A stretch of 34,875 nucleotides of DNA, taken from a virus (lineage: Duplodnaviria; Heunggongvirae; Uroviricota; Caudoviricetes). The DNA lies in IMG/VR virus record IMGVR_UViG_2917413769_000004, one strand, 5' to 3'. The position numbers were made by a program, and so were the translations under genes. Positions 34,475 through 34,875 of the stretch are shown piece by piece (position 1 is the stretch's first letter; every line of letters begins with the position of its first letter). The notes under the pieces are model-generated. The model worked only from the letters and a program-made list of their open reading frames with translations, made no database searches and was not told the origin of the DNA.

Positions 34475-34535
34475 TATCTGCGATCAGGCTGGTGCGAGTT
34501 CTGTTTTTTTCGGGCCGGTCTGATTTTCACATACT

Positions 34536-34635
34536 GTAAGGTTATTGCATATTCCATCCAGTCTCTTCCCATGTTGACCCAGTTCTTCCCATAATTATCT
34601 CACTTATTCCCTGTCATTTATCTCAAGTCTAATCA
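34536..34635. repeat. Prophage terminal region with phased candidate transposase-binding repeats
   Basis: Non-coding; ends ...aatca-3' and read inward starts 5'-TGATTAGACTTGA, resembling the Mu end as I recall it; TTCC(C)AT-type repeats at 34552, 34566, 34586, 34607 (14-21 bp spacing). Confidence 0.55.
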
Positions 34636-34875
34636 GGCGGCGTCGATCACCGGGAAGGTGTCGAAGAAGGCGTACACCAGGTTCACCACCAACAGGAAGA
34701 AACTCACCGGGGCGATAAGCGGCAGCGCAATCTTAAAGAAGCGGCGAATCGGCCCTGCGCCGTCAATAGCTGCGGCTTCAATCAACGAACGGGGAATGGA
34801 TTGCAGCGCGGCATAGAAGAACAGGAAGTTGTAGCTAATTTGCTTCCACACCGAGGCAAACACCACCAGAAACAT
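34636..34875 (-). CDS. ugpA: Host sn-glycerol-3-phosphate ABC transporter permease UgpA, internal fragment truncated by the prophage insertion
   Basis: Translation ...[69 protein letters not shown] contains the ABC-permease EAA loop and matches UgpA; frame is closed by a TGA made of prophage bases 34633-34635. Confidence 0.9.

Follow-up and report, generated by a model that had tools for sequence, protein, structure and literature searches.

The window analysed here is a stretch of 34,875 nucleotides of viral DNA, and the question raised by its far end is how phage sequence came to stop within a bacterial gene and what kind of element was placed there. Exact look-ups of the Mor protein and of a tail-fibre assembly protein led to NCBI contig PDIL01000020.1 (GCA_004745435.1), to which the window is identical, and two loci of that contig, L006 and L004, showed 0 mismatches to the window over overlaps of 6,214 and 3,791 bases, respectively. 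With high confidence, a transposable prophage of the BcepMu/B3 type, 34,937 bp long, was recognized as inserted in ugpA with a 6-bp duplication, and positions 34475-34635 as its mor-proximal end. This is a known type of element showing its known behaviour at a new site, and phages of this type are present in about one-tenth of complete E. coli genomes.

The host side of the junction was identified by translation, domain search, and alignment. The minus-strand ORF at 34633-34875 is translated as MFLVV...FPVIDAA followed by a stop, and its peptide matched Pfam BPD_transp_1 (E 1.9e-16). The preliminary description had read this ORF as the interior of UgpA up to FPVIDAA, closed by a TGA from the non-homologous bases 34633-34635, and the translation, the Pfam match, and the ugpA alignment all agree with that reading. 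Positions 34636-34875 matched ugpA in 5424 of the 5426 complete E. coli genomes, with an identity of up to 97.5%. This piece is the promoter-proximal part of the split gene and runs on past the window end; at the junction its bases correspond to ugpA nt 682-711. The boundary was set independently from either side, as ugpA homology begins at 34636, and copies of the phage-side sequence (34300-34635) are present in other E. coli genomes, in which the best matches break off exactly at 34635. Across this boundary the sequence reads ...TCTAATCA on the phage side and GGCGGCgtcgat on the host side. The insertion point lies after ugpA nt 711, i.e., between codons 237 and 238. Since intact E. coli UgpA has 295 residues, 58 residues are lost after FPVIDAA, a figure that replaces the earlier estimate of about 80. 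The exact 30-nt junction had no match in the species-representative genome collection, and the junction in ugpA was present in 0 of the 5426 complete E. coli genomes.

The other prophage end, which had been predicted to lie beyond the window start, was located in the source contig 302 bp before window position 1, and the whole element measures 34,937 bp. The far-side junction reads ...gacgtGGCGGC followed across the boundary by TGATGCGCC..., the phage tip at this junction being TGATGCGCCGCGCGATAAATG.... The remaining portion of ugpA, which had been proposed to lie across the prophage, was found directly after this end: the last 58 ugpA codons are followed in the source contig by ugpE, ugpC, ugpQ, yhhA, and ggt. 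When the element and one GGCGGC copy were deleted in silico, a collinear 888-nt ugpA was obtained, which carries 20 substitutions and, at nt 403, a 1-nt deletion compared with the E. coli gene. The identity of ugpA and the synteny ugpB-ugpA-ugpE-ugpC-ugpQ across the insertion identify the interrupted locus as the host operon.

A 5-bp target duplication, ggcgg (34636-34640), had been expected at this site. The duplication is instead 6 bp long: the second copy of GGCGGC adjoins the outer side of the far prophage end (302 bp before window position 1), and intact ugpA contains a single GGCGGC at the insertion point. An exact 6-bp duplication was found to flank each of the five independent insertions examined, and no other length fits. 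The duplicated sequences were GGCGGC for the present insertion in ugpA, CCATAG for an insertion in rlmC of E. coli strain 21KM1392, GCAACG in gadC of strain CFS3292, CACATT in the dsdX-dsdA region of strain S12, and GCCTCC in an FHIPEP gene of strain C7. The tips of the element have the form TG...CA, and both ends read TGAT... inward from the tip. Near-identical copies adjoin unrelated genes, among them rumB/rlmC, gadC, dsdX, the FHIPEP gene, ycaL, yehK, and an aldolase gene. In related prophages no tyrosine integrase is annotated, and the sole recombinase is a Gin-like invertase. The DDE (rve) transposase with its AAA+ partner, the TG...CA tips, the many unrelated loci, and the exact short duplications at five of five insertions argue for transposition rather than site-specific integration, which bears out the earlier proposal of transpositional insertion at an unspecific site. 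Phage B3 makes a 6-bp duplication, which has been described as the footprint of a B3/Tn552-family transposase, and TG-CA ends are found in Mu- and B3-like phages (PMC8705779).

The family of the element was assigned from its gene content and gene order (Table 1). With BcepMu gp09 the transposase shares 68% identity, and with its counterpart in B3 (ORF12) 57%, over 98-100% of the protein (tblastn), and it matched the phrog_310 transposase with an E-value of 6e-143. Its rve domain scored 31.4 bits, just below the Pfam cut-off of 32.6. No Mu-transposase domains were found in it by Pfam, which reported rve only, and the single match from a sequence search against solved structures was weak (E 0.007) and carries no Mu transposase label. 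The counterparts of the adjoining AAA+ ATPase in BcepMu and B3 are annotated as DNA transposition proteins, and the Mor homologue is gene 1 in both of these phages. The early genes, which also include DUF3164 and DUF2786 genes, occupy the plus strand from 27144 to 34474. The late genes, which comprise holin, transglycosylase, terminase, portal, and head genes together with genes for a P2-like sheath, tube, and baseplate, lie on the minus strand and extend from about 23850 to about 1600. This inversion of the early operon relative to the late genes puts mor, and not the repressor gene, beside the end of the element, and BcepMu and B3 have the same two-cluster layout. An inverted early operon and transposition proteins unlike those of Mu have been described for B3-like genomes (PMC5977238), and the BcepMu transposase has been described as a distant member of the Tn552/IS1604 family, encoded in a genome that is organized in two gene clusters (PMC2771037). 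The element has the characteristics of the BcepMu/B3 type, i.e., its transposase, an ATPase accompanied by GemA and Mor, the inverted early operon, TG...CA tips, the 6-bp duplication, and occurrence at many sites. It lacks those of the Mu type, i.e., a 5-bp duplication, MuA-type domains, and the corresponding position of the repressor gene, which is located mid-genome with the two clusters diverging from there.

Table 1. Window coordinates of the prophage end, the regulatory and early genes, and the host junction.
Feature	Position	Strand	Basis or remark
Prophage portion inside the window	1-34635		Both ends found in source contig; gene order collinear with E. coli 21KM1392 prophage and BcepMu
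CI-type repressor (HTH) gene	26424-26930		Pfam; between the two clusters, mid-genome
HTH gene	27144-27449	+	Early cluster
DUF3102 gene	27459-28370	+	Early cluster
DDE (rve) transposase gene, BcepMu/B3 type	28374-30143	+	tblastn, phrog_310, rve domain
AAA+ transposition ATPase gene (TnpB, ExeA-like)	30154-31320	+	Pfam AAA_22, E 2.6e-20
gemA	33660-34088	+	Pfam GemA, E 2e-40
mor, last early-operon gene, transcribed toward the end	34085-34474	+	Pfam Mor, E 1e-42; Mor in annotated relatives
Non-coding mor-proximal terminus ("left end", BcepMu/B3 convention)	34475-34635		Homology break at 34635 in other copies
Hairpin and UUUU just after mor	34482-34525	+	Folding: MFE -23.9 kcal/mol, z -3.1
GGRA array (TTCC(C)AT on plus strand)	34552-34611	-	Starts 25/26, 46/47, 66/67, and 81 nt from tip
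Terminal repeat core 2, GTGAGATAATTA, candidate transposase site	34592-34603	-	Position conservation; positions 33-44 from tip
Terminal repeat core 1, TTGAGATAAATG, candidate transposase site	34615-34626	-	Position conservation; positions 10-21 from tip
TGA closing the truncated UgpA frame	34633-34635	-	Reverse complement of tca, the three terminal phage bases (tip TGATTAG...)
Host ugpA, codons 158-237	34636-34875	-	Translation; Pfam BPD_transp_1; 97.5% nt identity to annotated ugpA
Target-site duplication copy GGCGGC (ugpA codons Ala236-Ala237)	34636-34641		Both junctions read in source contig

The likeness to BcepMu (Bcepmuvirus) extends beyond the transposase to the TG...CA tips, to both core motifs at the same positions, and to the two divergent gene clusters, in which mor-gemA...tnpB-tnpA points to the left end and the repressor, lysis, head, and P2-like tail genes come next. 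E. coli phage PhiKM is filed by NCBI under Bcepmuvirus. BcepMu is a phage of Burkholderia, whereas the host here is Escherichia, and its non-coding left end measures 364 bp compared with 161 bp in the present phage. The right end of BcepMu carries an acyltransferase gene in place of the Gin-like invertase gene and invertible tail-fibre segment of the present phage, and BcepMu has been described as lacking a tail-fibre inversion system (PMC2771037). Pseudomonas phage B3 (Beetrevirus) resembles the present phage in its transposase, in its inverted early operon with Mor as gene 1, and in its terminal core motifs, left-end GGRA repeats, and 6-bp duplication (PMC8705779). B3 is a siphovirus with another tail module, whereas the present element has P2-like contractile-tail genes. 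Phage Mu shares with the element a transposable lifestyle, Mor, GemA, a transposase gene beside an ATPase gene, TG...CA tips, random gene-disrupting insertion, and a Gin-type segment, but its transposase belongs to another family and its duplication is 5 bp rather than 6 bp. The early and late genes of Mu are transcribed in the same direction, with the repressor gene at the left end (PMC5977238, PMC8705779). The transposases of B3 and BcepMu have been grouped with that of Tn552 (PMC8705779, PMC2771037). Tn552 is a small staphylococcal resistance transposon and not a phage. Each of its ends contains two directly repeated 23-bp transposase sites, and its insertions are flanked by 6- or 7-bp duplications. 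By description, this end structure matches the 23-bp spacing of the cores and the 6-bp duplication of the present element.

The expectation of a 5-bp duplication had rested on the assumption of a Mu-type phage, and a reading in which the element is Mu or of the Mu type, its transposase belongs to the MuA family, and the TTCC(C)AT repeats are MuA-like end sites has to be weighed against the assignment to the BcepMu/B3 type. The genes for Mor, GemA, and an AAA+ partner beside a DDE transposase, the TG...CA ends, and the Gin-like invertase with its invertible tail-fibre segment all agree with a Mu-like phage. The 6-bp length of all five duplications, the Pfam assignment to rve only, the single weak structure match without a Mu transposase label, the inverted early operon that places mor rather than the repressor gene at the end, and the lack of TTCC(C)AT at the other end speak against the Mu type, which is considered very improbable; membership in the Mu family is refuted by the 6-bp duplication in conjunction with the transposase family.

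Site-specific integration in ugpA, a deletion, a rearrangement, or an assembly chimera could also produce a junction of phage and host sequence, and a lone junction in one window cannot separate these readings from transposition. Any such origin was judged to be extremely unlikely. These readings are opposed by the lack of an annotated tyrosine integrase in related prophages, by the occurrence of the same phage end next to many unrelated genes, by the host flanks, which rejoin exactly when one 6-bp copy is retained, by the agreement on this junction between the NCBI assembly and a Logan assembly of run SRR6148301, and by the finding that the element is in ugpA in no other complete E. coli genome. 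The possibility that ugpA ends naturally at the junction was also considered and was rejected, as the intact E. coli gene continues for 58 codons; the insertion reading withstood this comparison.

The phage side of the junction had been described as non-coding and ending in CA-3', and both points were upheld. No gene is annotated in RefSeq relatives in the 161 bp that separate the tip (34635) from the mor stop (34474), and the terminus ends in CA-3' on the plus strand, i.e., TG-5' when read inward. A search of Rfam gave no match in 34300-34875. The hairpin just after mor is probably an intrinsic terminator of the early operon, situated ahead of the terminal sites. Two differences in its arms in the 91%-identical C7 and PhiKM ends (G-U to A-U and C-G, read by eye) keep the pairing, and the hairpin at 34482-34525 was not flagged by a simple terminator scan. 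Two sigma-70-like hexamer pairs, which are consensus matches only, were noted on the plus strand at 34526-34553 and 34566-34595, pointing outward to the host DNA, and one of them has a TTCCCA repeat as its -35 element. In a scan, the end region contained 3 promoter-like sites compared with 0.6 expected.

The inverted copy of the terminal sequence that had been sought at the other end was found in part: the TGAT tip and two core motifs are common to both ends, but TTCC(C)AT is absent from the far end. The two cores of the mor-side end are in direct orientation and 23 bp apart, and those of the invertase end, GCGCGATAAATG and GTGAGATAAATG, lie at the same distances from the tip. In an ungapped stack of both ends of six phages (the present phage, E. 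coli C7, BcepMu, B3, PM105, and phiSHP3), cores of the form G(T/C)G(A/C)GA(T)A(A/T)(A/T)T occupied the same two positions at both ends. Since these cores are conserved in position at both ends and their surroundings are otherwise diverged, the GAGATAAAT-type cores, G(T/C)G(A/C)GATAAAT, are the best candidates for transposase end-binding sites. A further motif, GCAAAAGAATT(A/T)CAA, was noted at the right end, 68-85 nt from the tip (L006 about 3993-4010); it is common, at a similar distance from the tip, to the present phage, C7, B3, and PM105, and looser versions of it are present in BcepMu and phiSHP3.

The proposal that the TTCC(C)AT repeats are transposase binding sites was only partly sustained. 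The repeats are real and phased, but they constitute a signature of the left end and not a motif common to both ends. On the plus strand, TTCCCAT occurs at 34566-34572 and 34586-34592 and TTCCAT at 34552-34557; on the opposite strand, the longest GGRA copies are ATGGGAAGA at 34584-34592 and 34564-34572. There are only 5 copies of TTCCCAT in the 34.9-kb window, a window-wide count that is not above chance, and two of the five lie within 27 bp and form a local cluster. The GGRA repeats are confined to the mor-side end and absent from the other. Top-strand GGRA was found 4-7 times at the left ends and 0-2 times at the right ends of the present phage, BcepMu, B3, PM105, and phiSHP3, a set that amounts to only about four independent comparisons since B3 and PM105 are close relatives. 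At the left ends the repeats mostly lie near 26, 46, 56, 66, and 76 nt from the tip, approximately one helical turn apart.

It was considered possible, at somewhat less than an even chance, that these repeats are no incidental feature but a functional core of the left end that would give this end its identity, be it as a pac signal or by binding an accessory protein or a further DNA-binding domain of the transposase. Such a role is favoured by the asymmetry and near-helical spacing in five phages, by the retention of both ATGGGAAGA copies in the 91%-identical ends of C7 and PhiKM, and by the location of the pac signal of Mu in its left end. Points that weigh against a function are the shortness of the motif, the general G-richness of the left ends, so that some of the GGRA counts reflect composition, and the third copy, ATGGAA, which is not retained in C7 and PhiKM. 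Our guess is that the most likely role of the GGRA repeats is to distinguish the two ends in function, through added low-affinity sites for the transposase or an accessory protein or through a packaging signal. The more specific proposal, that the left-end array is an uncharacterised cis element giving the ends different roles, as a packaging signal or as an accessory site in transpososome assembly, is put forward tentatively and is rather unlikely to be correct in this form; the TTCC(C)AT repeats could be the local form of such a GGRA element. Only this position-conserved, left-end-specific array, with its putative function, is regarded as mildly new.

A mechanism for the insertion by the BcepMu/B3-type transposase can be proposed from its DDE family and from the literature on B3 and Mu. 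The transposase would bind the two directly repeated cores, whose centres lie some 15 and 38 bp from each tip at a spacing of 23 bp, pair both ends, and cleave at the terminal CA-3'. The two 3' ends would then be joined to target phosphates staggered by 6 bp, and gap repair would yield the duplication. As a consequence of the insertion, UgpA would be cut at residue 237 of 295, its frame being closed at once by the terminal TGA of the phage, and ugpE, ugpC, and ugpQ would be displaced 34.9 kb from the operon promoter. Because UgpA is truncated and these three genes are parted from their promoter, the Ugp glycerol-3-phosphate transporter should be inactive; an ABC importer needs both permease subunits, so Ugp transport should be lost. 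For this strain, loss of the Pho-regulated Ugp uptake of glycerol-3-phosphate and glycerophosphodiesters is predicted. The locus provides a fully resolved example of BcepMu/B3-type gene disruption in Escherichia, with both junctions, the duplication, and the rebuilt empty site. It also corrects the habit of applying the 5-bp rule of Mu to all Mu-like prophages, which matters for the automatic delimitation of prophage ends.

A second lesion was noted in ugpA itself, a 1-nt deletion in a G run at nt 403 (L004 about 3860, outside the window), where CGCGGGCTG is changed to CGCGGCTG. The deletion is present in both the NCBI and the Logan assemblies and shifts the frame at about codon 135; it reflects either a decaying pseudogene or a shared sequencing error. 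The phage insertion may therefore not be the first inactivating event in this gene.

Two further frameshifts were observed within the prophage. The Gin-like invertase gene (window 1-360, minus strand) has 2 extra nt within about 32-48 relative to three E. coli relatives, reading TTCTTTCACACGTCATG here and TTTTTCCATGTGATG in the relatives, and the shifted frame stops at a TGA at window positions 1-3, giving 119 codons compared with 193. Inverted repeats of 76 nt at 421-496 and 1908-1983, which are 97% complementary, bracket a segment of approximately 1.4 kb, in which alternative C-termini of the tail fibre and assembly genes are arranged in opposite orientations; it resembles the G segment of Mu. 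The invertase frameshift would lock this tail-fibre switch, unless it is an assembly error. In the DUF935 portal gene (17942-19437, minus strand), a 1-nt deletion at about 19058-19074, CAGCCCTG to CAGCCTG, was noted relative to three relatives and splits the gene in two (ORFs of 173 and 370 aa). In consequence, the prophage may be unable to make particles, or the deletion may be a homopolymer sequencing error. Taken together, the invertase and portal frameshifts suggest that the prophage may no longer be active. All three frameshifts, in the invertase gene, the portal gene, and ugpA, fall within short runs or repeats and could be artefacts of assembly.

An accessory region at 24226-26388, between the lysis genes and the repressor gene, has a lower GC content (0.43-0.51) and encodes a DUF2441 protein and a Dam-type methylase. 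Also within it is an ORF of 127 aa (26005-26388) whose match to phrog_10002 is limited to the C-terminal third. This family may correspond to the 328-aa gene downstream of the C7 repressor gene, in which case the ORF may be a truncated gene.

The 161-bp tip was found in 534 of the 5426 complete E. coli genomes at 90-100% identity, and the early region is 87-96% identical at the nucleotide level to E. coli prophages and to the phage records Phi06_2974 B, Klebsiella phage KP12, and PhiKM. In the complete genomes, the near-identical E. coli prophages occupy other insertion sites, and none is in ugpA. Many of the 534 genomes that carry the end, ST131 strains included, have it next to ycaL, and these copies look like one clonally inherited insertion. 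The host flank ggt-yhhA-ugpQ-ugpC-ugpE (L006 1-3925) is at best 95.5% identical to any of the 5,426 complete E. coli genomes, and the host probably belongs to a divergent or cryptic lineage of Escherichia and not to typical E. coli.
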